Positions 3,122 to 49,200 of a DNA stretch of 49,890 nt are shown one piece after another (the first letter of the stretch is position 1; each line of letters opens with the position of its first letter). The stretch lies in the sequence record NC_049853.1. One strand, 5' to 3'. The stretch comes from Escherichia phage Henu8. Both the position numbers and the translations under genes were made by a program. The notes beneath the pieces are model-generated. The model searched no databases. It was not told the origin of the DNA and saw only the letters and a list, made by a program, of their open reading frames with translations.

Positions 3122-3381
3122 TGAATAAGGCATTAATTGGAGTTTTGGTTGCAATCGCTACCCTGACCGGATGCGAAAAGGCATCTGAATCAACAGTTGT
3201 CGTAGGCGTGAGGTCGGATTTTAAAGTCGGTCGCCTGTTTACTGTTGATGGATGCACTGCGTACCGATTCTATGACAACGGTCGAGCAATCTATTACACC
3301 AATTGTAATGGCGCAACGGATAGCACATACCGGAGCGGCAAAAACGTAATGCACCAACAAGTCACAACAGATGTTAAATAG
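3121..3381 (+). CDS. putative lipoprotein (86 aa)
   Basis: N-terminus MNKALIGVLVAIATLTGC = signal peptide plus lipobox (LTGC); GGGGGA SD. Confidence 0.6.
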   Translation: MNKALIGVLVAIATLTGCEKASESTVVVGVRSDFKVGRLFTVDGCTAYRFYDNGRAIYYTNCNGATDSTYRSGKNVMHQQVTTDVK

Positions 3382-3421
3382 CACTTTTTGTTAAAACGCC
3401 AGGTGCAAATCCTGGCATAAT
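3376..3421 (+). promoter_or_regulatory. conserved phage promoter motif + -10 (CATAAT)
   Basis: AAATAGCACTTTTTGTTAAAAC (stop TAG embedded), 18-nt spacer holding inverted repeat GCCAGG..CCTGGC, then CATAAT at 3416-3421. Confidence 0.55.
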
Positions 3422-3453
3422 AGCCTCATCGAAACGAGATTGAGGAAAACAAA

Positions 3454-3639
3454 ATGGCACGTCGCATCACCAAAGACCTTAAAGTCCTGAACAAAGAAAA
3501 CGTAGTTAAAATCCTGGTCATCTGGGGATACAACGAAGAAACAGCAAAGCAGAAGGTAGAGGCAGGTTATGACCTGGCTGTAAAAGCAATGCCAAACGAC
3601 GACGCCAAAGGCATTGCAAACTATGTGGCTTTCTTTTAA
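3454..3639 (+). CDS. hypothetical protein (61 aa)
   Basis: ORF track; GAGGAAA SD. Confidence 0.55.
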   Translation: MARRITKDLKVLNKENVVKILVIWGYNEETAKQKVEAGYDLAVKAMPNDDAKGIANYVAFF

Positions 3640-3654
3640 TTAGCGGGTGAATAA

Positions 3655-3840
3655 ATGAAAACGAAATTAGTCCATAAATCAGAAATCAAGATCGGCGATA
3701 CTGTGATTCACAACGGCGAGCTTAGAACTGTTGGCAAAGAGTCAATAAGCCACGATGAATTTATGGGGATCTTGTTGTTCGGTGACTCTTATCGGTTGGG
3801 CTATAAAATGGTTGAGCTTGTGGAAGAGGTCAAATTCTAA
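3655..3840 (+). CDS. hypothetical protein (61 aa)
   Basis: ORF track; stop TAA directly abuts promoter motif. Confidence 0.55.
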   Translation: MKTKLVHKSEIKIGDTVIHNGELRTVGKESISHDEFMGILLFGDSYRLGYKMVELVEEVKF

Positions 3841-3884
3841 ATAGCACTTTTTGTTAAAACGCCAATCTAAAAACCTGGCATAAT
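3841..3884 (+). promoter_or_regulatory. conserved phage promoter motif + -10 (CATAAT)
   Basis: ATAGCACTTTTTGTTAAAAC at 3841-3860, 18-nt spacer, CATAAT 3879-3884; followed by conserved leader ACATAGGGCGGC. Confidence 0.55.
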
Positions 3885-3925
3885 GCATCACATAGGGCGG
3901 CACGGGCCGCAGTAACGAGGATAAT

Positions 3926-4111
3926 ATGATGAAATGCTTCACCACAAAAACAGAATGCGAAACCTATATCAAAGCCCAATATGGGGAATGTGCCTTTCAG
4001 GTTGGCGTAATATTCGCCTATCGCGTCAAGCCAATCGAAGCGAAGGCTTTTGGCGACCTGGTTGAAGGTTCATACATGGCCAGTAACGAGTTCGACGAGG
4101 TAACGCGTTGA
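3926..4111 (+). CDS. hypothetical protein (61 aa)
   Basis: ORF track; GAGGA SD. Confidence 0.55.
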   Translation: MMKCFTTKTECETYIKAQYGECAFQVGVIFAYRVKPIEAKAFGDLVEGSYMASNEFDEVTR

Positions 4112-4320
4112 TGAACTACATCCCAAAATGCCTCAGGGGGACACCTAAGGCAAAAACGAAGCCGCGCAGGCAGGCGATAAAGGAAGCCCAAGTGGCGGCG
4201 TTCAATCAGGCAATTAGCGTCGTGCTGGACAAGTGCCGAATTGAAAAATCTGAAAGGATGAAAGCGAACATGTACGCCGCAGTAAGCGAAATAGCGCGAC
4301 TGCGAGACAGTGTTAAATAG
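4108..4320 (+). CDS. hypothetical basic protein (70 aa)
   Basis: ORF track; ATGA overlap with upstream gene. Confidence 0.55.
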   Translation: MMNYIPKCLRGTPKAKTKPRRQAIKEAQVAAFNQAISVVLDKCRIEKSERMKANMYAAVSEIARLRDSVK

Positions 4321-4378
4321 CCAACCATGCCCCACTTCACGTTGGGCCAATAACTAATAACAGAGGTAAAATTCTGAA

Positions 4379-4422
4379 TAGCATTTTTTGTTAAAACTCA
4401 AAAACGATAACCAGGCATAATA
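4379..4422 (+). promoter_or_regulatory. conserved phage promoter motif + -10 (CATAAT)
   Basis: ATAGCATTTTTTGTTAAAAC at 4379-4398, 18-nt spacer, CATAAT 4417-4422; followed by leader ACATAGGGCGGC. Confidence 0.55.
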
Positions 4423-4474
4423 AATAACATAGGGCGGCGCGGCGTCGCCCACAAAACCAATCAGGAGAAACACC

Positions 4475-5362
4475 ATGTTAAAACTTGCTAACATTAAATT
4501 TCCGATCACCTTCGAATCTCGCGGCGTTGGTCACTTCATGTTTTCCGACGAAAATACATGCACTAAGTTTAACGAATACGGCAAGCCTGATGTTTCAACA
4601 ATGGAGATTGAGAACTTCATTGATGCGCATAACAAGCACTACAACTCACTCAAAGACTACGCCTACGCAATGCCAGGCTATACATGTTTCCACTACAAGC
4701 CATATAAAGGCCAGGTGCTTCCAGTTCGCTCACCAGAACGCGCAGAGATTCATACGGTCGAGATGAAAACCTGCGACTACAAGAAATTGTGGTGCTTAAA
4801 CGTGGATAATATCAAGTATCCGATTGTTTTTCATTGTGGCGGTTCAACAATCAGGTACACATCTCGCGACAATGGCGTTTATAGCGATGGTCAGAAATCC
4901 GAGTTGAAAGTTGATTTCTTTGTTAATGGTCATAACAAATTCAATCCACACAACGAAAAAGATAAGGTGTATTACGTGGAAGATATTACAAAACACTTGT
5001 TTGGAGAAACTCCATTCGGCGGCGGAAAGACGTCAATTCAACAAATCATTGGCGAGGAGATCCACAAGGCAGCCGTTAAAATGAAAGCGCCTGGAGGCTG
5101 GCGTATTGACAAGAGCGCCTTTGCCTATCAAGAAATCGTAACTCAGGGCGCAATTGAACATATGCCAGTTGCAGCCACGCTAAAAGGCGTCCAAATTGCT
5201 GATGGCGCATGGTTTGAATTAACGGCAAAACCAAAGACGATCGAGATTCATGATGACGTTGTTATTCTTCTTCTTCACTATGGCAGCGCGAAAAGCCGGA
5301 CGGTTGCAGGAGAGATCAGCATCAAGCGCGGAACGATGGTTAAGTGGAAGGTTAAAGTGTAA
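4475..5362 (+). CDS. hypothetical protein (295 aa)
   Basis: ORF track; AGGAGA SD; no motif recognised by eye. Confidence 0.65.
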   Translation: MLKLANIKFPITFESRGVGHFMFSDENTCTKFNEYGKPDVSTMEIENFIDAHNKHYNSLKDYAYAMPGYTCFHYKPYKGQVLPVRSPERAEIHTVEMKTCDYKKLWCLNVDNIKYPIVFHCGGSTIRYTSRDNGVYSDGQKSELKVDFFVNGHNKFNPHNEKDKVYYVEDITKHLFGETPFGGGKTSIQQIIGEEIHKAAVKMKAPGGWRIDKSAFAYQEIVTQGAIEHMPVAATLKGVQIADGAWFELTAKPKTIEIHDDVVILLLHYGSAKSRTVAGEISIKRGTMVKWKVKV

Positions 5363-5405
5363 ATAGCACGAATTGTTAAAACTCAAATGTGGGGCCAGGT
5401 ATAAT
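5363..5405 (+). promoter_or_regulatory. conserved phage promoter motif (variant) + -10 (TATAAT)
   Basis: ATAGCACGAATTGTTAAAAC following stop TAA; 17-nt spacer; TATAAT at 5400-5405. Confidence 0.5.
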
Positions 5406-5435
5406 GGCCTCACTTTCAACGAAGGGGATAAAGCG

Positions 5436-5681
5436 ATGATTATTGAACAGCATTTTCTTTGCGTTAAGAGCAATAGACCATTCTTCACGCCTGGAAAGAT
5501 GTACCAGGGCAAGAAGAATGGCAAGGACGGTCATTCTTATCACGTCCATTGCAATAACGGTAGCAAGTTCTACCTGAATGGATGCGGCGGCACTAAGATT
5601 ATGGCATTTGATCACGTAATTGCTGAATTTGAGCAAATCACCGACGCTGAATTTGAGGAAGTGAAAGATGGAAACAAATAA
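5436..5681 (+). CDS. hypothetical protein (81 aa)
   Basis: ORF 5373..5681 trimmed to ATG 5436 (AGGGGA SD; upstream ATG would sit inside promoter). Confidence 0.55.
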   Translation: MIIEQHFLCVKSNRPFFTPGKMYQGKKNGKDGHSYHVHCNNGSKFYLNGCGGTKIMAFDHVIAEFEQITDAEFEEVKDGNK

Positions 5682-5889
5682 GCGCGTTAAGCACAAGTTT
5701 ATTGATAATCATGGCGATGCACTTGAGGTATACAAGTTCGGCGATCGCGTGTTTATTGATGGCACGTTTCAAGGTGGAAGTATGCCGGATTTTAGGTCGA
5801 TACTCACCATTGACCAGGTGCGCAAGCTGGCGGATAAGTTAAATGATCTGGCAGATGAAATCGAATACAAGCAAATTCATTTTAATTGA
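5668..5889 (+). CDS. hypothetical protein (73 aa)
   Basis: ORF track; GAGGAAG SD; overlaps upstream gene. Confidence 0.55.
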   Translation: METNKRVKHKFIDNHGDALEVYKFGDRVFIDGTFQGGSMPDFRSILTIDQVRKLADKLNDLADEIEYKQIHFN

Positions 5890-6817: not shown

Positions 6818-7408
6818 ATGAAACGCGACATTATCATTCTTAACGGACCGCCAGGAGTTGGCAAAGATACGCTTGCGGCATACTTAACGGGTCATCGTTA
6901 CGCAGCGGTTAAAGCGTCTTTTAAACAGCCTATGTTCGATATTGCATTCTCCATGCTTGGCGTTTACAGATATGACGAGTTCATTGATCTGTATAACGAC
7001 CGCGAGCAGAAAGAAAAGCCTCAAGCAATCTTGCAAGGCAAGTCTCCGCGACAATTCATGATCTGGATTAGTGAAGAAGTCATGAAGCCGGCTTTTGGCG
7101 AGCAATATTTTGGGAATCGCATGGTTGAGCAAGTACACGAGATGTACAGAGATTTGGCTGTTGTAATTAGCGATGGCGGATTCCCTGAAGAAATCAAGCC
7201 GCTCGTTAAGGCAGGCCATGAAGTTCACATTTGCCGACTGCATCGCGAAGGTTTCACGTTTGATGGCGATTCGCGAAACTATATTGACCTGAGCGGATAC
7301 CATCACCGCGTCAAGCATTACGACTTCACAATGACTGATGGCGAGCCAGAAAAGACTGTTGACGAGATCATCAAAACTGTCCAGTGGAAACACATTAAGA
7401 TCAAATAG
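6818..7408 (+). CDS. P-loop nucleotide kinase (dNMP kinase / polynucleotide kinase-like)
   Basis: Walker A GPPGVGKDT near N-terminus; GGAGA SD before ATG 6818 (trimmed from 6803). Confidence 0.6.
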   Translation: MKRDIIILNGPPGVGKDTLAAYLTGHRYAAVKASFKQPMFDIAFSMLGVYRYDEFIDLYNDREQKEKPQAILQGKSPRQFMIWISEEVMKPAFGEQYFGNRMVEQVHEMYRDLAVVISDGGFPEEIKPLVKAGHEVHICRLHREGFTFDGDSRNYIDLSGYHHRVKHYDFTMTDGEPEKTVDEIIKTVQWKHIKIK

Positions 7409-7448
7409 CACGAATTGCTAAAAGCGGGGCGCAATGCCTCGCTATAAT
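7405..7448 (+). promoter_or_regulatory. conserved phage promoter motif (variant) + -10 (TATAAT)
   Basis: AAATAGCACGAATTGCTAAAAG with embedded stop TAG; 18-nt spacer; TATAAT 7443-7448. Confidence 0.5.
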
Positions 7449-7479
7449 GCAAACACCAATCAACGAGAGGAATTGGAAC

Positions 7480-8463: not shown

Positions 8464-8751
8464 ATGGCTAAAAGCAATCGTAAAATGTTGATTAACGCAT
8501 TCGAAAAGGCGGCGTTTGAGCGTGGTTGGAATGACTCATTTCACACGGCAAACTGTATCCGCCGTTACGGATTCAAGAATTGCCGCTCATGGGCGCGTCA
8601 AATGGCTTCATGGTATGATCTTGATGCACATTACCTTGATATGGATTGCGCCCTGGTTGAAATGATTGAGCAGGCCGCACTAGAGGATCGACCATTAACG
8701 CAATCTGATTTTGACGATTTTGTGCGCGATGAAATCTATTACATGAGCTAA
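8464..8751 (+). CDS. hypothetical protein (95 aa)
   Basis: ORF 8440..8751 trimmed to ATG 8464 with AAAGGAGGAAA SD. Confidence 0.6.
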   Translation: MAKSNRKMLINAFEKAAFERGWNDSFHTANCIRRYGFKNCRSWARQMASWYDLDAHYLDMDCALVEMIEQAALEDRPLTQSDFDDFVRDEIYYMS

Positions 8752-8794
8752 TAGCACTTTTTGTTAAAACTTCCGCGAGGGCATTTGTTAAAGT
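8751..8794 (+). promoter_or_regulatory. conserved phage promoter motif + weak -10 (TAAAGT)
   Basis: TAATAGCACTTTTTGTTAAAAC with stop TAA embedded; 18-nt spacer; TAAAGT. Confidence 0.35.
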
Positions 8795-8826
8795 GTCCTC
8801 ATTGAAGCGAAGCAGAGGAAATCAAA

Positions 8827-11445: not shown

Positions 11446-13013
11446 TGCTAATTTGGGAAGACTTAACAGCGGCGCAAAAACGCGCCGTTAAGGAAATGAG
11501 CGAATATTCATTCGAAAAGATGATCCGCATTTGGTTTCAACTTCTCCAGGGGCAAAGGTTCTTAGGAAACTGGCATTTCAGTTACCTATGCAGCGAAGTT
11601 GAAAAAATCATCAAAGGCGAGTCACAGAATGTAATTTTCAACATAACGCCAGGCAGTGGTAAAACAGAGATATTCTCGATCCACATGTCACCTTATGCGT
11701 CATTGAAAAGTAAGAAGGTGAGAAATCTTAATTTGTCGTTTAGTGATGGCCTTGTCCAGCAGAACAGCAACCGCATCAAAGAGATTATTGGTTCTCCAGA
11801 ATGGCAGGAGCTATGGCCTGGAAAGCTGGCAAAGGCGAGCGCAAAGGATTTGATTGTAACCGATGGCGGCAAGGTTAAATTGCAAGTTAACTCGCGTTCT
11901 ATCGGTGGTCAGGTTACTGGTCTGCGTGGCGGCTACATGGACGGTGGATTTACTGGTATGCTGGTTCTTGATGATCCAGACAAGCCGGATGATATGCTTT
12001 CTAAGGTGAAGAGAGAAGCCGGACACATGCGCCTAAAGAACACGGTGCGATCGCGTCGAATGAAGGACACCACGCCAATTGTGATGGTTCAGCAACGTCT
12101 ACACGTCAATGATTCAACATGGTTCATGACAAACTGCGGCATGGGCGGCATCCAGTTTAAGGTGGTCAGTATTCCGGCGCTCGTTACTAAGGAATATCGC
12201 GAAACGCTTCCTGATTGGTTAAAGCCTGAGTTTGATCGCGATGTTTTGTCCAGTAAGCCAGTGATGATTGATGGCGTTGCTCATTATTCATTCTGGCCTG
12301 CTAAAGAGAGCGCTGAGGAATTACTTGCACTTCGCAATGCTGATCCTTACACGTTCGCTAGTCAGTATCAGCAACAGCCTGTTGCGCTTGGCGGTAACGT
12401 GTTTAAAACAGAGTGGTTTCAGTATTACGGCAGCAGCGAGAAATGCACGCTACCAAAACCGGATCGCTTTGAATATACATTTATCACGGTTGATACCGCA
12501 CAGAAAACAGGGGAGCTTAACGACTACTCCGTGATCTGTTATTGGGGGATGTATAAAGATCGCGTTTACTTCATTGATGGTGTTCGCGGAAAATGGGAAG
12601 CACCAGACCTTGAGACTAATTTTGTTGCGTTCGTTAATCAGTGCTGGAAGCGCAATAAAGAATGCGGAACGTTGCGAAGGATTCATGTTGAAGATAAGTC
12701 ATCTGGCACTGGCTTGATTCAGAGCGCAGCGAAAAAAATCATGATCAAGATCAATCCCGTTCAGCGAGATAAAGATAAGGTTACGCGAGCAATGGACGCA
12801 GCGCCAGTAATGCGCGCCGGACGCGTGGCACTTCCAGAATCGCATCCTATGCTGGCTGAAATACTTGCTGAGGTTGCGGCGTTCACATTCGATGATTCGC
12901 ATCCTAATGATGATATTGTTGATAACATCATTGATGCGGTTAACATTGAAATGAACATGGCAGATGATCCGGTTGGAAGAATGAAAAAATTGGCAGGCTT
13001 GCGGAACAAATAG
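11445..13013 (+). CDS. terminase large subunit
   Basis: 522 aa; N-terminal ATPase with Walker A-like PGSGKT and Walker B-like VLDDPD, then nuclease-sized C-terminal half. Confidence 0.75.
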   Translation: MLIWEDLTAAQKRAVKEMSEYSFEKMIRIWFQLLQGQRFLGNWHFSYLCSEVEKIIKGESQNVIFNITPGSGKTEIFSIHMSPYASLKSKKVRNLNLSFSDGLVQQNSNRIKEIIGSPEWQELWPGKLAKASAKDLIVTDGGKVKLQVNSRSIGGQVTGLRGGYMDGGFTGMLVLDDPDKPDDMLSKVKREAGHMRLKNTVRSRRMKDTTPIVMVQQRLHVNDSTWFMTNCGMGGIQFKVVSIPALVTKEYRETLPDWLKPEFDRDVLSSKPVMIDGVAHYSFWPAKESAEELLALRNADPYTFASQYQQQPVALGGNVFKTEWFQYYGSSEKCTLPKPDRFEYTFITVDTAQKTGELNDYSVICYWGMYKDRVYFIDGVRGKWEAPDLETNFVAFVNQCWKRNKECGTLRRIHVEDKSSGTGLIQSAAKKIMIKINPVQRDKDKVTRAMDAAPVMRAGRVALPESHPMLAEILAEVAAFTFDDSHPNDDIVDNIIDAVNIEMNMADDPVGRMKKLAGLRNK

Positions 13014-13043
13014 CACGAATCGACAAACCAATATATAATCAAA

Positions 13044-13069
13044 GGCTGGTAAATCCAGCCTTTTTTATT
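13044..13069 (+). terminator. hairpin plus T-run (terminator or attenuator) between terminase and portal
   Basis: GGCTGG-TAAAT-CCAGCC followed by TTTTTTATT; preceded by TATAAT at 13034-13039 and a degenerate copy of the promoter motif. Confidence 0.45.
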
Positions 13070-16775: not shown

Positions 16776-16800
16776 GGCGCTCACTGAGCGCCTTTTTTAT
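16776..16800 (+). terminator. rho-independent terminator
   Basis: GGCGCTC-ACT-GAGCGCC hairpin followed by TTTTTTAT. Confidence 0.55.
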
Positions 16801-17248: not shown

Positions 17249-17331
17249 CACAAAATTATGTTGCACGTTTAACAAAAAATGCTATCATTGGGGCGTTACA
17301 TACTAACAGCCTTTATATATGGAGGAAGAAA

Positions 17332-18318: not shown

Positions 18319-18350
18319 GGGGAATCCTTAACTGGATTCCCTTTTTTATT
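18319..18350 (+). terminator. rho-independent terminator after capsid gene
   Basis: GGGGAATCC-TTAACT-GGATTCCC hairpin followed by TTTTTTATT. Confidence 0.65.
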
Positions 18351-18682: not shown

Positions 18683-19099
18683 ATGGTTGATGAATTTTTC
18701 ACTGACGCAGAAATCACGCAGCAAATCGTAAAATTAGCGCCACCGATGAAGCAGATTGATCCAGATTTAATGGTGGCATGGATTGAGCTTGCAAAGGAGT
18801 TTGTTTGCAAGAAGCGGTTTAAAGAGTCATATCCTAAAGCGGTTGCCCTTTATACTTTGCACCTTATGACGCTTGACGGAGCTATGAAGCAAGAAGGGGA
18901 AAGCGTAGAGAGTTACTCGCGGCGCGTGGCGTCATTTTCCCTGACTGGTGAATTTAGCCAGACATTTGATCGCGTGTCCGGCGATTCAAGCGGAAAAGAG
19001 ATTAGACAAACTCCGTGGGGCAAAATGTATGAGACGTTAAATAGAAAAAAAGGCGGTGGATTTGGCCTTGTTACTGGATTTCGGAGGCGCTGCAAATGA
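18683..19099 (+). CDS. head-tail connector / adaptor protein
   Basis: 138 aa; GGAGGAAAC SD; position between capsid and tail genes. Confidence 0.45.
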
Positions 19100-20959: not shown

Positions 20960-20965
20960 TCACAA

Positions 20966-20990
20966 GGGGCGTTGCGCCCCTTTTTTTGTT
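20966..20990 (+). terminator. rho-independent terminator after major tail gene
   Basis: GGGGCG-TTG-CGCCCC hairpin followed by T7. Confidence 0.65.
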
Positions 20991-21058
20991 ACTGTACAAT
21001 CAAGCTACACGATTCATAATCAATTCTTTTAACAAAAAGTGCTATCAAGGGGAAAGAA

Positions 21059-21376
21059 ATGTCAAAAATGAAATTGACGATTGGGCCGCTTCCTGACTTT
21101 AAATTACCAGTGAAATTTGCAATGCCTAACGGAGAAGATCAAACAATTATCTTCACAGTTCGCCACCGCAAAACAAGTGAGATTCACGAGCGCTACACGT
21201 CAGATACTCCAATGAGCGATGTTGAAATGATCACCTTCCTTGCTTCCGGTTGGAATCTTGATGATGAATTTAACGAAGAAAATATTAAACAGCTTCTTGA
21301 TTACTACCCAGCGACAGCAATCGGATTAACTAGCGCATACATGAAAGCGCTTGCGGGGCAGCGAGTAAAAAACTAA
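21059..21376 (+). CDS. tail assembly chaperone (G-like)
   Basis: 105 aa, immediately upstream of the tape-measure gene; ends in slippery heptamer A AAA AAC. Confidence 0.65.
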   Translation: MSKMKLTIGPLPDFKLPVKFAMPNGEDQTIIFTVRHRKTSEIHERYTSDTPMSDVEMITFLASGWNLDDEFNEENIKQLLDYYPATAIGLTSAYMKALAGQRVKN

Positions 21377-21687
21377 AAAGGGCGGTTTACCTGTTTTATC
21401 AGAAACCGCCGACAGATGCAGAGCTTGAGGCCGTTGGCCTTACAAGGGCAGACTATGAAGGGGAAGATCCGCCAGAGGTTATATTTGATGAAAGCATGAT
21501 GCAATCATGGGATATATTTTGCGCAATGCAAACGCAATGGAGATGTTCTGGCGGTGGCGCTTACGGGTTTGATTATAATGTCTTGCCTATGCTTTTTGAG
21601 ATTTACAAGGTTGAGGATCGCGAGATGGCGCTAAACGACTTGCGAATCATGGAGCAAAAAGCACTTGAAATGATGCATTCAAAATAA
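21059..21687 (+). CDS. tail assembly chaperone frameshift product (GT-like), -1 slip at 21367-21373
   Basis: A_AAA_AAC in zero-frame register just before stop; the -1 frame stays open from 21373 to 21687 with no independent start signal. Confidence 0.55.
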
Positions 21688-21710
21688 GCGCCTACGGGCG
21701 CTTTTTTATT
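21686..21710 (+). terminator. rho-independent terminator-like hairpin
   Basis: AAGCGCC-TACG-GGCGCTT followed by TTTTTATT. Confidence 0.5.
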
Positions 21711-24752: not shown

Positions 24753-24756
24753 TTCA

Positions 24757-24782
24757 AGCCGCCTTTGTGCGGCTTTTTTATT
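24757..24782 (+). terminator. rho-independent terminator-like hairpin
   Basis: AGCCGC-CTTTGT-GCGGCT followed by TTTTTTATT. Confidence 0.5.
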
Positions 24783-24813: not shown

Positions 24814-25575
24814 ATGGCTAATGAAACAACAGGTCGCGCGGATCTTGAAAATTGTCTGCAAAGCCTTTACCCTGGCGAGATTATCACGCTAATTGAGATT
24901 GACGGCACAAAGTTTGGCGCAAACATTTACCGCATACACAATGAGAACATCTCATACACTGCGGAAGAATTATTGCAGGCGCGAGAAACTGGAGTTCTTC
25001 CGCCGAAAGAGATTACATTCCGTGGCGAGGTTTACGGCGCGCGCCCGTTTGGAATATCTGGAATCAACTTCACAAGCAACGGAAAGGCTGATAAGCCACA
25101 ATTGATACTATCAAACCTTGATAGCCAGGTGAGCGCGATGATTCGCAACTTTAACGGCATGATGCAAGCTAAGGTCACAATCTGGATCACGCCAGCGGAA
25201 TTAATGGGGAAAGATGGCAGCATTAAAGATGGAGCCTCAAGAAAGCTGGTTTACTACATTGAGCGCCCAAGCCATTACAATAGAATGATGGCGAAATTTG
25301 ACCTGACATCGCCTTATGATATGGATGGAATAATGATTCCTCCGCGAATAACTCAAAGCGTTTGTTATTGGGCGCAGCGTGGATGGTATCGAAGCGGAAA
25401 AGGTTGCGGATACAATGGATCGCGAATGTTTGACAAAGACAACAATCCTATAACCGATCCATCTCAAGACTTTTGCGCAGGAACTGTAACAGCGTGCAAA
25501 CTTCGTTTTGGTGCAGATAAGCAGCTTGATTTTGGCGGCGCACCAGTAGCAAGCCTGTTAAGGAGAAATCAGTGA
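24814..25575 (+). CDS. minor tail protein (lambda L-like)
   Basis: Trimmed to ATG 24814 (AAGGAGG SD); C-terminal Cys cluster (C-x...C-x...C-x5-C) as in Fe-S-binding L-type tail tip proteins. Confidence 0.6.
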   Translation: MANETTGRADLENCLQSLYPGEIITLIEIDGTKFGANIYRIHNENISYTAEELLQARETGVLPPKEITFRGEVYGARPFGISGINFTSNGKADKPQLILSNLDSQVSAMIRNFNGMMQAKVTIWITPAELMGKDGSIKDGASRKLVYYIERPSHYNRMMAKFDLTSPYDMDGIMIPPRITQSVCYWAQRGWYRSGKGCGYNGSRMFDKDNNPITDPSQDFCAGTVTACKLRFGADKQLDFGGAPVASLLRRNQ

Positions 25576-26918: not shown

Positions 26919-26963
26919 GCCCGTATAATTCAACAAATCAAATAGCACAAAAGGTGAAAAAGA

Positions 26964-31792: not shown

Positions 31793-31823
31793 CTTGGTAT
31801 CTCCTTCGTTGTTGTTGGTTGCA

Positions 31824-31867
31824 ACTATACACGATCTTGCGATTGGCGTTTAGCAAAAAGTGCTATT
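31824..31867 (-). promoter_or_regulatory. conserved phage promoter motif (variant) + -10 (TATAGT) for the cor-like gene
   Basis: Minus-strand AATAGCACTTTTTGCTAAAC, 18-nt spacer, TATAGT. Confidence 0.5.
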
Positions 31868-31920
31868 CTTGTTCTTTTTGTTATCCTGTGTTCTCAAATC
31901 TGCGGAGTCTTAAATTTAGC

Positions 31921-32150
31921 TCAAAAAGTGAACAACAATAGAGCGCAATGCATACAGATAAATATATATACATACATATAAATCAATAAGTTAGTAGTAT
32001 ATATATTCATGTTTGTTCTTTATTGTTATCTATGTTTTGTGTGATTTTGTGTGTCTGGTGATTTTTCTGTGATTATGCATGTGTCAGTGGTTATGTGTGT
32101 CTATATATCTATATCCGGCGCAAATGGAGGAACAAGAGAACAAAAATACA
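31921..32150. repeat. TA/TG-rich element, copy B (homologous to 2248-2470)
   Basis: Same shared blocks as copy A (AAATCAATAAGTTAG, ATATATATAC, GGTGATTTTT, GTGAT units); in a ~500-bp region without an ORF. Confidence 0.55.
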
Positions 32151-32237
32151 ACAAAGGTATTTATCAATCACTTACATGTGAATTTTGTTATCCAATTCTC
32201 CTAGAACGTTGTTAGAACAGAAAAAACAAAATAACCA

Positions 32238-32265
32238 TTGACTAAACGCATTAAATAGCTAAAAT
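32238..32265 (+). promoter_or_regulatory. sigma70-like promoter (TTGACT-16-TAAAAT)
   Basis: TTGACT 32238-32243, TAAAAT 32260-32265, upstream of the exonuclease gene. Confidence 0.5.
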
Positions 32266-32294
32266 GCAGGCATACCAACCAACGAGGGAAAATC

Positions 32295-33356: not shown

Positions 33357-33437
33357 ACAGCACAAATAGCTAAACAAATGAAAAATGCGGTGTTATAATT
33401 CACCGCATAAGTTAACAACAAGCGTAAGGAAATAAAC

Positions 33438-38830: not shown

Positions 38831-38885
38831 ATGCACCTCAAACAAAAAAGCCTGACAGATGATAACATCATGCCAGGCATTGTTT

Positions 38886-39359
38886 TTAGCAATTAGTGCT
38901 TTCAGGTTTATACAGGAATCCGCCAGGCTCATAATCTGACATTCTTACCACTCGCAACATTTCACGCTTATCACATCTCTTTGTGAGCGGTTTGCCATTG
39001 GAATCAAATCGCAGATCTGGACGGCAGAATGACGCGCGATAGCCTTGACAGCCATACTTTTTGTAATCGTTATGCACCTTTTGAGCGCCAGCGGCTGAAA
39101 TCATACCGCGAACTCGCCACTGATTTACAGTTTGCTGGCTAACGTTAAGACGTTTTGCCATTGCTGACACACTTCCGTAATACTCAATAAGGATGTCAAG
39201 TCTCGCTTTTAGTCCGGCGCGCACTTCATCTTTTAAAACATAGTATCCAGTAGGGCGCTTGCGCTTCTTCTTATCTTTACCCCGTCGAGTTCCGTTATTG
39301 CCATTAATTGTGCGCTTGTCAATCTTGCCAGTTGATACTGCGATTCGCTGTTCTTTCAT
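38886..39359 (-). CDS. HTH DNA-binding protein
   Basis: 157 aa; GGAGA SD; helix-turn-helix-like AKRLNVSQQTVNQW; basic Lys/Arg-rich N-terminus. Confidence 0.55.
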   Translation of the reverse strand: MKEQRIAVSTGKIDKRTINGNNGTRRGKDKKKRKRPTGYYVLKDEVRAGLKARLDILIEYYGSVSAMAKRLNVSQQTVNQWRVRGMISAAGAQKVHNDYKKYGCQGYRASFCRPDLRFDSNGKPLTKRCDKREMLRVVRMSDYEPGGFLYKPESTNC

Positions 39360-39372
39360 TACTCATTCTCCA

Positions 39373-39415
39373 ATAGCATTTTTTGTTAAACGATGATTTA
39401 ATGATTGTGTATTAT
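39373..39415 (+). promoter_or_regulatory. conserved phage promoter motif + -10 (TATTAT), divergent region
   Basis: ATAGCATTTTTTGTTAAAC, 18-nt spacer, TATTAT 39410-39415. Confidence 0.5.
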
Positions 39416-39448
39416 ACACGCCAAATGGCATTACTCAAAGGTTTTAGA

Positions 39449-41488
39449 ATGATTCCAAACATTGAAAAGCAAATATCAGCACTTGGTGAAGCGGTAATTA
39501 AATCCATTCAGGAGCGATTCACTGTTGGCGATATTGTGCCTTACCCTTACCAGTGCGTTGCATACGCTGAGATCGCAAGGCGTATGAAAAATTATGAGCA
39601 TCCATTCTTTGTTAAAGCGTCCGTATCGGCTGGCAAAACATTGATGTTTGCAATGGTTGCTCACCAGTGCCGGAAAATGGGATTGAAAATGATGGTCCTT
39701 GCTCGCCAGGCTGAGATTGTGGATCAGGATTCTGAAGAGATAACAAATCTTGGAGTGCCGAACTCCATCTATTGTGCAGGACTGAAGACAAAAAGCGCAT
39801 ACTTTCCGATCGTTGTTGGTTCTGAGGGAACTGTAGTTAATGGGCTGTTTAAAGCGCTTGGCGACTATGTTCCGCACGTTATCGGTATTGACGAGTGTCA
39901 CCAGGTGGATTGGGAAGATCTTGCCGACGCAATAGAGAAAGACGAATCATTTTTACAAATGACGACGAAGAAAGGCGAAAAAGTACCAAATCCAGATTAT
40001 GACATAACGAGCGATAACGAATGCAAAGAGTTCCTGATTGGTGAGGATGGCTTGCCAATGGAGGGAACAGGCCGCACACAATACACTGTCATTATCATGG
40101 AAATGATGCGCCGCTGCCGGAAAACATATGGTCATGAACTGCGCATATTTGGAATGACTGGATCGGAGTTTCGCGGCTTAGTCCCGATCTTGGTGGAAGA
40201 CAAAAAACAGAAAGGATTCTGGCGTGAACAGGTTACTAATATTGACACCAACTACCTGATCAAATTCGGTTCTGTTGTGCCAACAAATTTTGGCGACGTT
40301 GGCGATCTAGGGTATGACCTTTCAGAGTTTGAGGCATCCAGTGAGGATGGAGTTGCAGACTTTGACGCTAAAACGCTTCGCAGGATGGAACAAAAAATTC
40401 ATGAAGAAGCTACCATGACAAAGCGCATCATGGCGAAAGTTCACGAGATCTGTAAAAAACGCAACGGCGTACTTGTGACATGTGCAGGAGAAAGGCATTG
40501 CAAAGAGGCAGCGGCATCATTGCCACCTGGAACGACTTACAGGATCATTACTGGTAAGACTGGCGACAACCAGCGCAAGGAGTGGTTGAAAGAAGCATAC
40601 GAGGGAAAGGTAAAATACATCTTCCAGGTTCAGGCGCTAACTACTGGCGTTAACGTGCCGTTTTGGGATACGTCTGTTATTCTGCGTAAGATTGGATCGC
40701 TAACTTTGCTGATTCAGCTTTTAGGACGCGGAATGCGACTTCTTAAGAAATGGCATAAGGAACAAGGATTCAAGAAAGATGATCACCTTGTTATGGATTT
40801 TTCAGGAACGATGGACGAGTTAGGTGAGCTTTATTTTGACCCGATACTGGAACAGGCGCAACATCAGAAGCGATTCAGGAACGGTAAAGATCCGAAGCCT
40901 TGTCCTGTTTGTGGAACTCTTAACAGCTATTATGCTCGTCGTTGTATGCACGTAGACGAAAACGGCAACAGATGCGAGTGGTTCTTTAAATTCAGGACAT
41001 GTGATGATCAGATTGACCCGCGCACTAAAAAGATTATTCATCGAGGCTGTGGAACTAAAAATGATATTGCGGCCAGGGTGTGCAGACATTGCGACATGTC
41101 ATTGATTGACCCTAACGAGAAGTTAAGCGGAAAGCACTACACAAAAAACGACTGGTTCCAGGTGCAATCTTTCTCGGTTGACATGACGAAAAACCAGAAA
41201 GGGATAATATTTAATTATGAGCTTTCCGATGGCATAGACACTTTCAGGGCGAGAGAGATATTTTTCCCTGAATCTGAGAGCCAAATTTGCCGCGCAAAAT
41301 GGCGAAGCGTTGCTCTTAAGCACATACCAGATCGCCGTGTTGCTGGCATGGTGGCGAGCTATCGTAATGCACGTAAAATCATGCAATATGTGAATCACAT
41401 CATGCCACCATCGCGTGTAACTCACCGCAAGACTAGCAAGGGTGAAGATAATTTGTACAAGAAGGACTTTAATTATGGCAATGACTGA
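39449..41488 (+). CDS. ATP-dependent helicase (SF2, DECH box) with C-terminal zinc-ribbon region
   Basis: Trimmed to ATG 39449; Walker A-like SVSAGKT, DECH motif, C-terminal CPVCG...C...CEW...C...C..C..CRHC cysteine cluster. Confidence 0.7.
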   Translation: MIPNIEKQISALGEAVIKSIQERFTVGDIVPYPYQCVAYAEIARRMKNYEHPFFVKASVSAGKTLMFAMVAHQCRKMGLKMMVLARQAEIVDQDSEEITNLGVPNSIYCAGLKTKSAYFPIVVGSEGTVVNGLFKALGDYVPHVIGIDECHQVDWEDLADAIEKDESFLQMTTKKGEKVPNPDYDITSDNECKEFLIGEDGLPMEGTGRTQYTVIIMEMMRRCRKTYGHELRIFGMTGSEFRGLVPILVEDKKQKGFWREQVTNIDTNYLIKFGSVVPTNFGDVGDLGYDLSEFEASSEDGVADFDAKTLRRMEQKIHEEATMTKRIMAKVHEICKKRNGVLVTCAGERHCKEAAASLPPGTTYRIITGKTGDNQRKEWLKEAYEGKVKYIFQVQALTTGVNVPFWDTSVILRKIGSLTLLIQLLGRGMRLLKKWHKEQGFKKDDHLVMDFSGTMDELGELYFDPILEQAQHQKRFRNGKDPKPCPVCGTLNSYYARRCMHVDENGNRCEWFFKFRTCDDQIDPRTKKIIHRGCGTKNDIAARVCRHCDMSLIDPNEKLSGKHYTKNDWFQVQSFSVDMTKNQKGIIFNYELSDGIDTFRAREIFFPESESQICRAKWRSVALKHIPDRRVAGMVASYRNARKIMQYVNHIMPPSRVTHRKTSKGEDNLYKKDFNYGND

Positions 41489-41894
41489 TAAAGGCGATTA
41501 TCTGGAGTTTTACGAAAGAGATCCGACGGATACGCTAAAGGAGGAATCACACCAGATCGGGGCGTTTCAATGGTTAACTTATGCTCATCATGAATTGCTG
41601 GCATGGCATACGAAAAACGAGGGTGACAAGGGGATCGCCACCGCAATGATGGATCAGCAAGCCGGACTCGTTAAGGGCGTAAGTGATTTTATCATCCTGA
41701 TTGGATTAAAAGGCCGTTACCCTTTCGCGGCTATTGAGATGAAACGCGTCAATAAGTCTGGCAAGGGAAAGGCTTCACCAGTCAGCAAGGATCAAAAAGC
41801 CTTCTTGCGCCGCGTGCGTGAGCTTGGCGGATTCGCTGCCGTAACATACGGATACAAGCAATTTATGATCGCGGTCGAATACATGATGAAATAG
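41475..41894 (+). CDS. VRR-NUC-type nuclease (PD-(D/E)XK)
   Basis: Trimmed to ATG 41475; ...VSDFIILIG...AAIEMKR... (D...E-x-K) core. Confidence 0.55.
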   Translation: MAMTDKGDYLEFYERDPTDTLKEESHQIGAFQWLTYAHHELLAWHTKNEGDKGIATAMMDQQAGLVKGVSDFIILIGLKGRYPFAAIEMKRVNKSGKGKASPVSKDQKAFLRRVRELGGFAAVTYGYKQFMIAVEYMMK

Positions 41895-41934
41895 CACTTT
41901 TTGTTAAAACAGGCGCGAAGGATTGCGCCATAAT
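41891..41934 (+). promoter_or_regulatory. conserved phage promoter motif + -10 (CATAAT)
   Basis: AAATAGCACTTTTTGTTAAAAC with stop TAG embedded; 18-nt spacer with inverted repeat GGCGC..GCGCC; CATAAT 41929-41934. Confidence 0.55.
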
Positions 41935-41968
41935 AACACCAGTTCAACAGGCAACAGGTAATTAAGAA

Positions 41969-42674: not shown

Positions 42675-42932
42675 ATGCAGAAAGAAAGAAGAGTTTTACT
42701 TAATGAATATGGCGAATTTCTTTTGTATCGCGCTATGGTATGCGATGCGCTTGATAAAAACCCCAACGTGAAAAAGATGATTGATTGCGATCCGTGGGAA
42801 TTTTCAAGCGCATTAGATATGAGCTTTGAGGAGACAAAAAAACTCCCGCTTGAAAAATGGAACGAGCAAATCAGAAATGACATGCAAGAATTTGTCGATT
42901 CGTGGAATTTTCAGCACGGAATGATCCACTAA
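42675..42932 (+). CDS. hypothetical protein (85 aa)
   Basis: ORF 42588..42932 trimmed to ATG 42675 just after the dam stop. Confidence 0.45.
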   Translation: MQKERRVLLNEYGEFLLYRAMVCDALDKNPNVKKMIDCDPWEFSSALDMSFEETKKLPLEKWNEQIRNDMQEFVDSWNFQHGMIH

Positions 42933-42975
42933 TAGCACTTTTTGTTAAAACGCCCGGCCTTGTGTCGGGCATAAT
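42932..42975 (+). promoter_or_regulatory. conserved phage promoter motif + -10 (CATAAT)
   Basis: TAATAGCACTTTTTGTTAAAAC with stop TAA embedded; 18-nt spacer; CATAAT 42970-42975. Confidence 0.55.
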
Positions 42976-43007
42976 TATTTCATCAAAACGAACAAGAGGA
43001 AAATAAA

Positions 43008-46546: not shown

Positions 46547-46865
46547 CGCTCATTTCTCCGATCCGTAAAACATCCCTTACCCATTCGTTTTGCATACCTT
46601 CAAGGCTGTAAAGTTCAAACGAGAAAGGGCGATTTGCCGATCCTTTCTTACACCAGAACTTTCCACCAACTCCATCAAGATAACCAGCGGTCATCATTCT
46701 TGCGCAAAACTCTTTTGAAACAGCAGTCGCAAACATTCTCGGCGTAAACCCTGCGGCCCTTGCGAGCCGCTCACATTCTCTATGCTGAAATATAAATTTT
46801 GCTATATGTTGACGTGTAAACCATTCGAATGACTCACACCAGCGATACAGATCCAGAAGAAACAT
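46473..46865 (-). CDS. hypothetical protein (130 aa)
   Basis: ORF 46473..46871 (GTG) trimmed to first ATG 46865; GGGGTGA SD; overlaps stop of upstream gene. Confidence 0.5.
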   Translation of the reverse strand: MFLLDLYRWCESFEWFTRQHIAKFIFQHRECERLARAAGFTPRMFATAVSKEFCARMMTAGYLDGVGGKFWCKKGSANRPFSFELYSLEGMQNEWVRDVLRIGEMSDEELFTSNANRQNIEVLRRKFNLT

Positions 46866-46867
46866 AA

Positions 46868-48451
46868 TCACCCCAACAATGTTGGATTTACGAAAACAAC
46901 GCCATTAATCACACAAATATAATTTCTTTCTTCAAGCATCGGCAGCAGTTGCGTTTCCATGCGCTTCATTACGCCAGCCTGACCAACAAACGGCTTAACT
47001 TTTCGTGCTGCCTCATATATGGCGCGCACATTCAAGATTCCCTTATTAGCCTTGCCGTGTCGAGTGATGATCTCGATTAGTTTACCCATTTCAGCATCAT
47101 CACCAGCGTAGCCAGAAGCGTTGGCGGCGCTAATGTATGTTTTGCTCAACTCGCTAAACATCAGTAATGCTTCCTGAACGGTTTCAACTTCAATCTCTTT
47201 CGACTTCTGAGGGTATCCGCCAGGATTAAACCAGTTGCGGATAGTGTGCAAAACTGAAGCAATCCTGATCACCTGCTTATCCATTTTGCCAAGCGCGCCG
47301 CGCAGCATTGTATGCGAATACTTTCCTCCATCGGCAAGGTGCGGCTCCATCTCCTGACGAGCCATGTTAAGCACTCGCATTGCTGATTTGCTGATCTTAA
47401 GCTGGATGTTTGATTCGCTCATGATGTTATGGATCAGCTTAAAATATTGACTTTTCAGTTCTCCATCAACAGGCTCATAAGTCGAATCACCGTTATCATC
47501 AACAAACTTTCTACGGCCTAAAAATGATTCCTCACGTACAAGCAAATAACGCTCACTTACACCGATACCGCGCGATCCTGCATCCATGATGGCATTGATT
47601 GTTTCATCCTGGGCAATTACGGCCATACAGCCAAGAGCTTTAAAACTCATATTGTTGTCAGCGTTTGCACGAGCTATAGAAACATGACCATGATCCCATG
47701 CTTTTAGCACAAGTTCGCTGTTGGTTTTACGTTCGCTATTGGCATATGTCAGACCTAAAAGGCTGTTAATACTCGTTGCCTCGTCTGAAATTACAGCAAA
47801 GTTTCCCTGGCGGTTGTTGATTCTTGCAAGTCCTTCCGGCGTTGTGTCTGAGACAGGGAAAACAATGTCACACATCTTTTCCAGCTTTTCTTCCAGATCT
47901 TCTTTCTCCTGGTACAGAGATTCCATATCAGCTCCGGAACGCTCGCTTTTCATTTCCTTTGCAAGACCTGCCAACTTTGCCTGAATCTTTTTTCGTTCCT
48001 TCTTTCGCTGATCATTAATTCTTTCCACCTCAGCAACCATAGGAGCAAGTGCCAGGCTGTTAACGGCAGATTTACCAGTTGAAGGAGGCTGACTTGTAAC
48101 AACATAAAGAGCGGTCGGCTGATCCGTTCCGTGATACTCAACAGTGAAGCGTCCAAGCATTGCAGCAGACACGCAGCCGATAAAATGCATATATGCCGAT
48201 GATTCAGGGAACTGAACTGATCGAGCAATGTTGCGCGCCAACTTTCCAACAACATCAACATCATTGCCAAGAGAAATTACAGGGTAGCGATCGTTTCCGT
48301 TATTAACATCATTAACCTCACCCCAAAAGCTGGACGATTGACGGTATCCGTTTGCCTGAATGGACACGCGCACCGGAGACAATCCTTGTGCATCAGCTAA
48401 TTCGATAATTTGTTTTGGTGTTAGTTTATTGGTTTCAAACGAAAAATTCAT
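46868..48451 (-). CDS. large early P-loop protein (527 aa, function unknown)
   Basis: Trimmed to ATG 48451 (AAGGAG SD, 9-nt spacer); Walker A-like TSQPPSTGKS; Lys/Glu-rich coiled-coil segment. Confidence 0.6.
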   Translation of the reverse strand: MNFSFETNKLTPKQIIELADAQGLSPVRVSIQANGYRQSSSFWGEVNDVNNGNDRYPVISLGNDVDVVGKLARNIARSVQFPESSAYMHFIGCVSAAMLGRFTVEYHGTDQPTALYVVTSQPPSTGKSAVNSLALAPMVAEVERINDQRKKERKKIQAKLAGLAKEMKSERSGADMESLYQEKEDLEEKLEKMCDIVFPVSDTTPEGLARINNRQGNFAVISDEATSINSLLGLTYANSERKTNSELVLKAWDHGHVSIARANADNNMSFKALGCMAVIAQDETINAIMDAGSRGIGVSERYLLVREESFLGRRKFVDDNGDSTYEPVDGELKSQYFKLIHNIMSESNIQLKISKSAMRVLNMARQEMEPHLADGGKYSHTMLRGALGKMDKQVIRIASVLHTIRNWFNPGGYPQKSKEIEVETVQEALLMFSELSKTYISAANASGYAGDDAEMGKLIEIITRHGKANKGILNVRAIYEAARKVKPFVGQAGVMKRMETQLLPMLEERNYICVINGVVFVNPTLLG

Positions 48452-48480
48452 TGATGATAACTCCTTTTTTTGATGCGGCA

Positions 48481-48525
48481 ATAATACCGCACCAATGCTA
48501 CCCGCATTTAACAAAAAATGCTATT
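48481..48525 (-). promoter_or_regulatory. conserved phage promoter motif + -10 (TATTAT)
   Basis: Minus-strand AAATAGCATTTTTTGTTAAA with stop TAG of gene 48521..48742 embedded; TATTAT about 20 nt downstream. Confidence 0.45.
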
Positions 48526-48742
48526 TGATCCGCTCTATGCTAACTAAGATTTTTTCTGGTTCCCTTGCGCTATTGCAATGCGCGGTTACAGAATCAGCAA
48601 AATCAAAGTAAAGTGATTTGTGATATGATAATCCAATCAGCCACCCAACCATTGTTTTCTTTATTGGCCTGACTATATCGCCAGGCTTGAAGGTTTTTGT
48701 TGCCGAATGAGTCACCTTATAGCGATATTCAGCCTTGATCAC
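48521..48742 (-). CDS. hypothetical protein (73 aa, GTG start)
   Basis: ORF track; GTG overlapping TGA of upstream gene; GAGG 10 nt upstream. Confidence 0.45.
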   Translation of the reverse strand: MIKAEYRYKVTHSATKTFKPGDIVRPIKKTMVGWLIGLSYHKSLYFDFADSVTAHCNSAREPEKILVSIERIK

Positions 48743-49125
48743 TTATACATAGCCTCAAACAAATGACAGCCACCAGCGGAAAATCCAACTTCTTCGCGGT
48801 ATAGCGTCCAGCGGTCGCCAGCTTCATCAAACACATAACCAGCAACAGCGCCAAGCGCGCGGCCTTGCTCAATCTGGTAGCGCTTTCCTTCTTTGAAATG
48901 CTTTTTACACGGGATCTTGTGATCTACAAAGGTGCATTTAATTGTTTTTGTCTTGATATGACGATAGTCAGATTCAACAGCGTTTTGCCACTTGCTACCC
49001 TTTGTAATGCTCTTTACCTGGAATTGTTCCAACTCGATCACATCATCGCTACCAGCAATTTTTTCGTATACAGCTTTATAACGACAGTTCATCAAAACGT
49101 TGGTTTTATTGCAGATAACTTTCAT
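48739..49125 (-). CDS. hypothetical protein (128 aa)
   Basis: ORF track; AAGGAG SD; preceded by promoter motif. Confidence 0.55.
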   Translation of the reverse strand: MKVICNKTNVLMNCRYKAVYEKIAGSDDVIELEQFQVKSITKGSKWQNAVESDYRHIKTKTIKCTFVDHKIPCKKHFKEGKRYQIEQGRALGAVAGYVFDEAGDRWTLYREEVGFSAGGCHLFEAMYK

Positions 49126-49156
49126 CGTTTATTTCTCCTTTCGTTTCGGTGAAGTG

Positions 49157-49200
49157 ATTATGCCAGGCTTTTACACCTGGCTTTTAACAAAAAGTGCTAT
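49157..49200 (-). promoter_or_regulatory. conserved phage promoter motif + -10 (CATAAT)
   Basis: Minus-strand AAATAGCACTTTTTGTTAAAAG with stop TAG embedded; 18-nt spacer with GCCAGG..CCTGGC inverted repeat; CATAAT. Confidence 0.55.

Follow-up and report, generated by a model that had tools for sequence, protein, structure and literature searches.

The question raised by the genome of Escherichia phage Henu8 (NC_049853.1) is what a sequence of about 20 nt is doing at one gene boundary after another. The window analysed here, i.e., the whole stretch of 49,890 nt (49.9 kb), is essentially the complete genome of a T1-like siphovirus; it shows 92-95% identity across long stretches with the Hanrivervirus phages pSf-1, egaa, grams and SFP17, by which the phage can be classed as Hanrivervirus-like (Drexlerviridae, Tempevirinae). 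The repeat as such is already published, of which the preliminary description of this DNA was unaware, and its function is the unsettled part. The 2024 re-annotation of phage TLS lists 18 intergenic "21-nt direct repeats" (DR1-DR18, consensus aaATAGCACnnnTTGnTAAAA) of the subtypes T, G and A, whose orientation follows transcription and which lie ~76 nt 5' of start codons; the same repeats are reported there for T1, Rtp and Rogue1. Stoperators, enhancer-binding sites or UP elements were proposed, and the function of the repeats was named among the unanswered questions. The motif in the window is the same element: it has the consensus aaATAGCACnnnTTGnTAAAA, occurs in TTT and GAA types, is intergenic, and in 17 of 19 copies is oriented with transcription ~76 nt before a start codon. 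In particular, DR7 is the counterpart of the reversed copy located 5' of the capsid gene, and DR8 that of a degenerate copy before a tail gene. Unlike the present analysis, the TLS paper reports no fixed -10 hexamer or start site, no match to the marbox (the binding site of the host regulators MarA, SoxS and Rob) and no spacer hairpins.

A conserved promoter cassette between genes

A search with ATAGCACTTTTTGTTAAAAC at up to 3 mismatches on both strands returned 16 matches, against 0.03 expected from shuffled sequences. The copies at 7405 and 38883 appear at 5 mismatches, and those at 33357 and 13010 were recovered by consensus scan or by eye. The resulting consensus is ATAGCACnnWTTGYTAAAAC, with 21 copies in the window when degenerate ones are included: 19 main copies, on top of which come the degenerate copy at 13010 and a further one at 26942. 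All 19 positions of the preliminary description proved to hold a copy within a few bases (33357 for its 33365, and 13010 for its 13009), and its counts turned out to be accurate or conservative throughout. As it had stated, 17 copies are oriented with the downstream gene, each facing an open reading frame (ORF) with a ribosome-binding site and a start codon 72-97 nt (mostly 73-81) past the start of the motif, while those at 17266 and 21026 have the reverse orientation inside the plus-strand structural block. It had credited 14 copies with a -10 hexamer; we found 17 such copies, 13 with an 18-nt and four with a 17-nt distance. The stop codon of an upstream ORF (at least 50 codons) lies in or abuts the motif in the 12 copies claimed, as the TAG of ATAG in six and as a TAA at -3 or -2 in the other six; ATAG provides a TAG stop in one frame, and the preceding TAA serves the other frames. 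The apparent locking of the stop codon into the motif is due to compaction, the intergenic space being exactly one promoter cassette.

This cassette, of ~76 nt and present in 17 copies, consists, in order, of the upstream stop codon, the motif at -50 to -31, a spacer of 17-18 nt that often contains a hairpin, a G at -14, a (C/T)ATAAT hexamer at -12 to -7, a C-rich discriminator of 6 nt, a CA start, an A-rich leader of ~25 nt, the ribosome-binding site and the ATG. Start sites are predicted from the conserved CA (offsets 49-50 from the beginning of the motif), the A of which was taken as +1. In a family sample of 312 distinct copies with their flanks, drawn from T1-like IMG/VR contigs and the window, the motif (offsets 0-19) is followed by G at offset 36 (76%) with T at offset 35 (48%), TATAAT at offsets 38-43 (A and T each 86% at key positions), a C-rich stretch, the CA, an A-rich leader with the consensus ATCGAAACGA and a ribosome-binding site. 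When sites were chosen by the -10 hexamer and leader alone, the motif stood at the exact offset with ~90% conservation per specified position, in loci that had themselves been fetched through the motif and thus form a sample that is not fully independent. Promoters of the same geometry number ~20 in T1, 14 in a Klebsiella Webervirus (portal protein 55% identical) and ~20 in 'Pseudomonas phage Motto'. Taken together, a promoter role of the forward copies is well supported.

Two observations may be added on the members of this family. The leader A(U/C)CGAAACGA, at +1 to +14 of each cassette (e.g., 3428-3441) between the start and the ribosome-binding site, recurs from genus to genus, perhaps as a signal for translation or stability, perhaps only because it was copied along with the cassette. 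The records ON843697 ('Pseudomonas phage Motto'), MG0656xx ('Campylobacter phage A16a' and others) and NC_054898 ('Vibrio phage Vc1') are T1-like, have ~44% GC and E. coli-type promoters and ribosome-binding sites, and some records with such non-enterobacterial labels encode portal proteins 98-99% identical to that of the window. The host labels of these records look doubtful, including that of Motto with 44.5% GC.

The box as a candidate marbox

Published descriptions of the marbox consist of the consensus strings AYNGCACNNWNNRYYAAAYN and of a form derived from ChIP-seq, gcannwwntgnnaaa. The latter has 20 exact matches in the window against 1.7 expected, and AYNGCACNNWNNRYYAAA has 14 against 0.10 expected. 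Compared with the marbox 20-mer AYnGCACnnWnnRYYAAAYn, all 19 main copies show 0-2 mismatches and 17 of them 0-1, the usual single mismatch being at position 19, where micF deviates likewise. The positions that vary among the phage copies (8 n, 9-10 W, 14 Y) are among those degenerate in the published consensus. Depending on the motif variant, 14-15 of 20 positions are identical to the micF box of E. coli MG1655 (ACAGCACTGAATGTCAAAAC) and 15-16 of 20 to its mar box (ATGCCACGTTTTGCTAAATC).

The geometry agrees as well. In class II marbox promoters, a forward box overlaps the -35 region with its centre between -36 and -55, and the cryo-EM complex of RamA on micF has the activator at about -41. 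The box of the phage, likewise forward, overlaps the -35 region and is centred at -40.5 relative to the predicted start. Its 18- or 17-nt distance to the -10 hexamer matches those of E. coli micF (18 nt, TAGAAT), nfo (18 nt, TATCAT) and fumC (17-19 nt). The phage cassettes thus resemble the class II promoters of MarA/SoxS/Rob/RamA (micF, fumC, nfo, lpxC P2) in an asymmetric 20-bp forward box centred near -41, in the 18 nt to the -10 hexamer and in the lack of a good -35 hexamer; they differ in that host boxes are single and degenerate, whereas the phage has ~17 near-identical copies combined with extended -10 character and a common leader. A binding site for a phage or host factor had been one of the options of the preliminary description. 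We favour it, with moderate confidence, in the more specific form of a marbox in class II position, i.e., an activator site for a host regulator of the MarA/SoxS/Rob type, the binder itself and the activation being putative. In kind, the promoters would belong to the activator-dependent sigma70 family. In the searched literature, most subscription papers lying outside the search, no match came up for the anatomy of the promoters, the identification as a marbox, the embedded hairpins or the rob-like capsid promoter described below, and a literature search for a T1-like transcriptome or a connection between marbox and phages gave nothing relevant.

Each forward copy would accordingly be the activator-binding box of a sigma70 promoter for the gene immediately downstream, in which a class II marbox takes the place of a usable -35 hexamer. 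A monomeric activator with a pair of helix-turn-helix (HTH) motifs, of the MarA/SoxS/Rob (RamA) type, may contact GCAC (-47 to -44) with one HTH and TAAA (-36 to -33) with its second, and would bring in RNA polymerase via sigma70 region 4 and the alpha C-terminal domain, in the way seen in the solved structure of RamA on micF. Of this family, Rob alone is present in the cell at all times.

The reversed copy at 17266 lies in a sigma70-like promoter located 40 nt 5' of the major capsid gene (17332), and the T1 equivalent (TTGACG-16-TATTAT) has a reversed box in the same place. The window promoter, TTGCAC-gtttaaCAAAAAATGC-TATCAT, has 13 consecutive bases in common with the E. coli rob promoter (...CAAAAAATGCTATTAT). 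Both carry a reversed box (ATAGCATTTTTTG...) in the spacer between the -35 and -10 hexamers, fused to the -10 hexamer in the same register, although the rob box has a poor RE2 half and that of the capsid promoter is complete. Transcription of rob is reportedly repressed by MarA via a box between -35 and -10. By analogy, the reversed box at the capsid promoter occupies a repression-type position and may repress this promoter as the box does at rob, which is listed among the MarA targets and whose core promoter is overlapped by predicted boxes. The placements of two other copies also suggest repression rather than activation: the reversed copy at 21026, between the terminator of the major tail gene and the gene at 21059, which is conserved in T1 at 18850, and the degenerate copy at 26942, conserved as DR8 of TLS and at 25021 in T1.

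A wider reading, which we put forward only tentatively and hold for somewhat less probable than the marbox itself, is that marbox copying has wired nearly the whole early programme of T1-like phages, together with the repression of the capsid promoter, to MarA, SoxS, Rob and RamA, the host's best marbox having been copied into ~17 class II promoters and one rob-type repressed promoter. If so, bile salts, salicylate, oxidants and antibiotic-resistance (mar) mutations would govern the timing and yield of infection, and phage DNA in replication, carrying ~20 boxes per genome, could set off the switch from early to late expression by titrating the regulator. If the marbox reading is right, it would be a clear example of how a virulent phage can employ a stress and antibiotic-resistance regulon of its host as a transcriptional switch. 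It would tie the susceptibility of E. coli, Shigella, Salmonella and Klebsiella to phages to their mar/sox/rob status and their exposure to bile and drugs, with relevance to phage therapy, and would offer a source of compact, strong, activator-dependent promoters. In any case, the marbox reading makes the published question on the function of the repeat testable at the bench.

Several points weigh against a host factor as the binder. The identification of the box and of its factor is drawn from sequence comparison, and the phage shows almost no variation at several box positions that are free in the marbox consensus. Unstressed cells do not make MarA and SoxS, and most of their Rob is sequestered unless an inducer is present; yet plain medium supports good growth of T1-like phages. 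The same boxes occur in records labelled as Pseudomonas, Vibrio and Campylobacter phages, which makes a purely enterobacterial factor less likely if these host labels are right. Finally, the box holds a partial palindrome, TAGCA-N5-TGCTA, centred at -42, and lambda cI at PRM likewise sits at -42.

Alternative binders and alternative roles

These last points lead to the alternative that retains most weight, namely that the box is the operator of a phage-encoded activator, expressed from an immediate-early canonical promoter and acting in class II fashion at about -42; such a protein would drive 'middle' promoters as lambda cI does at PRM, with a logic resembling that of T4 MotA. An AraC/MarA-type protein is not a candidate for this role: in a phmmer search with MarA, SoxS and Rob against all ORFs of at least 30 amino acids the best E-value was 0.3, and no Pfam match to HTH_18/AraC was found among 60 window proteins. 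The phage does encode two conserved HTH proteins, and exactly these two genes are preceded by canonical sigma70 promoters, which are few in this genome. The first, a DUF7174 protein found only in T1-like phages, is encoded by the first rightward gene (2651-3121, plus strand) behind the promoter TTGACA-17-AATAAT (2586-2614). Its AlphaFold model (pLDDT 78) has a winged-helix-like domain at the N terminus and two long helices at the C terminus. The protein is a possible immediate-early regulator. The second, encoded on the minus strand at 38889-39359, is a Cro-like regulator that belongs to the T1 gp23 family and is very conserved there (50-99% identity); its Cro-fold HTH is preceded by an invariant basic N-terminal arm (DKRxxNGNNGTRRGxD) and followed by a conserved C-terminal domain (CRPDLxFxxNG). 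A canonical minus-strand promoter (39438-39411, TTGAGT-16-TATAAT) drives this gene and the primase gene, and within window positions 39359-39449 it overlaps face to face with the box promoter of the helicase gene (motif 39373, -10 hexamer 39410-39415). Their -10 hexamers coincide in the same base pairs, so that RNA polymerase on one of the two promoters excludes its binding to the other. TLS has the same face-to-face pair (P57/DR11), and its P01 and P57 seem, by position only, to be equivalents of the two canonical promoters.

The partial palindrome and the presence of the boxes in records with non-enterobacterial host labels also fit a phage protein, and the comparison with lambda is close in part, as a Cro/cI-type HTH bound to OR2 at PRM (centre -42) activates via sigma region 4 and this phage has a Cro-fold protein. 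Lambda operators, however, are symmetric, whereas the phage box is largely asymmetric: within TAGCA-N5-TG(C/T)TA, the partner of the invariant G4 (position 14) is C in 43% and T in 53% of the copies, and neither the conserved C7/T11 pair nor the AAA flanks obey the symmetry. The T4 middle promoters (MotA box with AsiA) share with the cassettes a conserved box in place of the -35 hexamer and a sigma70 -10 hexamer, but the MotA box lies at -30 and the phage box at -41, and the box sequences are unrelated; among the Pfam matches shown there is none to the MotA/AsiA family, at which no check was aimed. Moreover, neither HTH protein has the two-HTH fold of AraC, and an unrelated protein would have to arrive by chance at the marbox sequence, its orientation and the 18-nt spacing, when a match to the marbox consensus is expected about once per million positions. 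We therefore regard a phage-encoded activator as rather unlikely, though as a rival to be taken seriously; if the binder were the Cro-like protein, the promoter class and the regulator candidates would still be defined.

A marbox bound by a host activator has also to be weighed against readings that need no activator. Extended -10 promoters can work without a -35 hexamer, and the cassettes could be such promoters, read by the sigma70 holoenzyme alone, with the box as an UP-like contact or a displaced -35 element. The -10 hexamers are near consensus, and the phage must begin expression in unstressed cells. The promoters do have extended -10 character, as suggested by the preliminary description, marked more often by the G than by the T: in the window G at -14 is present in 14 of 17 promoters and the full TG at -15/-14 in 8 of 17, and among 230-312 distinct copies across the family the respective frequencies are 76-85% for G and 43-48% for T. 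The same description had noted that TTGTTA stands 22 nt from the -10 hexamer and that the motif is not a standard -35 placement, with which our analysis agrees: the motif is tied to the -10 hexamer at a fixed distance rather than being a displaced -35 hexamer, for which TTGTTA (22 nt), TTAAAA (19 nt) and TAAAAC (18 nt) are all unconvincing candidates. Its UP-element option fares worse. The UP element is an A/T-only tract which the alpha C-terminal domain contacts at -59 to -38; relative to this consensus, the box is wrong both in composition, its most conserved and invariant positions including G and C (GCAC, TTG), and in position (-50 to -31). About 30 bits of conserved, asymmetric, G/C-containing sequence far exceed what contacts of alpha C-terminal domain or sigma region 4 would account for, TTGYTA lies 22 nt from the hexamer, and the reversed copies inside late promoters would be left unexplained. 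Altogether, promoters without any dedicated factor appear improbable.

Other known binding elements were likewise rejected. The GG and GC elements of sigma54 promoters have the form TGGCAC-N5-TTGC. In the box, GCAC and TTGC are 3 nt apart instead of 5, and a sigma70 -10 hexamer follows at a fixed distance. The consensus sequences of IHF, Fis, Lrp, sigma28 and sigma32, compared by eye, do not fit.

Two further roles have little to recommend them as the main one. The cassettes might be chiefly linkers for modular recombination, as the preliminary description also suggested, by which co-infecting relatives exchange small accessory genes in the manner of T4-type PeSL cassettes, i.e., repeated promoter and stem-loop units beside small variable early genes. 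In comparisons with grams and SFP17 and in an initial BLAST comparison, homology with relatives breaks in or beside cassettes at 573/608, 3376, 3905, 4359-4362 and 8821; small variable ORFs are flanked by cassettes, and RecE/Erf-type recombination proteins are among those of the phage. Of ~19 breakpoints, 4-5 fall in or beside cassettes, with ~1 expected, and most of them lie elsewhere; an excess at cassettes was not significant on IMG/VR fragments (p = 0.13, too few hits). Recombination requires neither the fixed spacing to the -10 hexamer, which it does not explain, nor the start site or the consensus match. The repeated cassettes are probably occasional exchange points, secondary at most and a by-product of repeated promoters, and a primary linker function is very improbable. 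An equally slight chance is given to the 'stoperators' of the TLS paper (repressor sites or roadblocks): copies do lie between genes, pointing the way transcription runs, and three of them (17266, 21026 and 26942) cover core promoters or start regions where binding would repress, but 17 copies possess their own -10 hexamer, start site and leader at the fixed distance of an activation geometry, and this family of virulent phages shows no evident lysogeny repressor.

Coordinates and accompanying sequence features

The coordinates of all copies in the window are compiled in Table 1. The copy at 13010 is not a promoter of the cassette type, because a -10 hexamer was looked for at 17-18 nt from it and none is there. 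Should the reversed copy at 21026 fire, the product would be a short antisense transcript that enters the bidirectional terminator (20964-20982) where the major tail gene ends; the -10 hexamer of this copy, poor in the window, is TAAGAT in T1.

Table 1. Promoter cassettes and other copies of the repeat in the window (start sites are predicted; on the minus strand, hexamers are given in the direction of transcription).
Feature	Coordinates	Strand	Motif	-10 hexamer	Predicted start	ATG	Remarks
Promoter cassette	567..641	-	622-641 (ATAGCACTTTTTGTTAAAAA)	TATATT 603-598	591	566	TAG within motif is the stop of an upstream 121-codon ORF
Promoter cassette	1071..1147	-	1128-1147	TACATT 1109-1104	1097	1070	TAA abuts motif
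Promoter cassette	1916..1996	-	1977-1996	CATAAT 1958-1953	1946	1915	First leftward promoter beside AT-rich non-coding region
Promoter cassette	3378..3453	+	3378-3397	TGG + CATAAT 3416-3421	3428	3454	Spacer hairpin GCCAGG..CCTGGC; motif TAG ends ORF 3121-3381; homology breakpoint 3376
Promoter cassette	3841..3925	+	3841-3860	CATAAT 3879-3884		3926	Leader hairpin
Promoter cassette	4378..4474	+	4378-4397 (ATAGCATTTTTTGTTAAAAC)	CATAAT 4416-4421		4475	Breakpoints 4359-4362
Promoter cassette	5363..5435	+	5363-5382 (GAA variant)	TATAAT 5400-5405	5412	5436	17-nt spacer
Promoter cassette	7405..7479	+	7405-7424 (ATAGCACGAATTGCTAAAAG)	TATAAT 7443-7448	7455	7480	Spacer hairpin
Promoter cassette	8751..8826	+	8751-8770	TGT + TAAAGT 8789-8794	8801	8827	
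Promoter cassette	31793..31866	-	31847-31866 (ATAGCACTTTTTGCTAAACG)	TATAGT 31829-31824		31792 (cor-like gene)	0 mismatches to marbox consensus
Promoter cassette	33357..33437	+	Divergent, ACAGCACAAATAGCTAAACA	TGT + TATAAT 33394-33399		33438	0 mismatches to marbox consensus
Promoter cassette	38831..38902	-	38883-38902 (AAAGCACTAATTGCTAAAAA)	TGT + TATCAT 38864-38859		38830 (primase)	
Promoter cassette	39373..39448	+	39373-39392	TATTAT 39410-39415		39449 (helicase)	
Promoter cassette	41891..41968	+	41891-41910	CATAAT 41929-41934	41941	41969 (Dam methylase)	Spacer hairpin GGCGCG..GCGCC
Promoter cassette	42932..43007	+	42932-42951	CATAAT 42970-42975	42982	43008	Spacer hairpin GCCCGGC..GTCGGGC
Promoter cassette	48452..48524	-	48505-48524 (ATAGCATTTTTTGTTAAATG)	TATTAT 48486-48481	48474	48451 (helicase)	
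Promoter cassette	49126..49200	-	49181-49200	TGG + CATAAT 49162-49157	49150	49125	Spacer hairpin CCAGG..CCTGG
Reversed copy	17266..17285	-					Fills 16-nt spacer of plus-strand promoter TTGCAC 17261-17266 / TATCAT 17283-17288
Reversed copy	21026..21045	-		TAGCTT (poor)			Just 3' of plus-strand TGTACA-16-CATAAT (20993-21020)
Degenerate copy	26942..26961	+	ATAGCACAAAAGGTGAAAAA				Overlaps ribosome-binding site and start of large tail gene (26964), 3' of a TATAAT
Degenerate copy	13010..13029	+	ATAGCACGAATCGACAAACC				TAG is the large terminase stop; terminator follows at 13041-13063

The spacers between box and -10 hexamer fold better than shuffled sequences (mean -4.6 versus -2.3 kcal/mol; -4 kcal/mol or lower in 40% versus 13%), and folding is more favourable in the sense than in the antisense strand (-4.6 versus -3.6 kcal/mol, p = 1e-16), which points to G-U pairs in a sense RNA. 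Two classes of hairpin can be distinguished. Those of class A are confined to the spacer (e.g., CCCGGC-gaaa-GCCGGG) and end at -13, followed by the U-rich -10 hexamer; three hairpins of this type were annotated as rho-independent terminators by the authors of the T1 genome. In class B, positions -24 to -19 pair with the discriminator (-6 to -1), leaving the -10 hexamer in the loop; in this exact register at least 5 of 6 pairs form in 24% of 230 promoters, versus 3-10% in shifted registers. The use of 30 different class B stems implies covariation, and since the 3' arm ends at -1, the structure could form only in read-through RNA or in single-stranded DNA. Examples of hairpins in the window lie at 3398-3415, 42952-42970, 5390-5411 and 8777-8800. 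Possible roles are those of a leaky terminator, of a stabiliser of the 3' end of the upstream message or of an insulator of the promoter from read-through. A cruciform that would shorten the 22-nt spacer was rejected, as its extrusion would take out too much DNA.

Two AT-rich non-coding regions of ~500 bp each (2000-2586 and 31866-32290) have repeats in common, namely aatcaataagttagt, gtgtgatt and tatata runs. The first ends at the canonical promoter of the DUF7174 gene (2586-2614) and corresponds in T1 to the genome ends and terminal-repeat area; the second ends at another canonical promoter (32238-32265, TTGACT-16-TAAAAT), which leads into a recE-like gene. Both regions could represent a pac site, an origin or upstream promoter elements. 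Among the late genes (10.7-31.5 kb), strong terminator hairpins (e.g., 16776-16792, 18319-18342, 21686-21703 and 24756-24775) lead straight into a ribosome-binding site and start codon without an intervening promoter, an arrangement that implies read-through or antitermination of late transcription.

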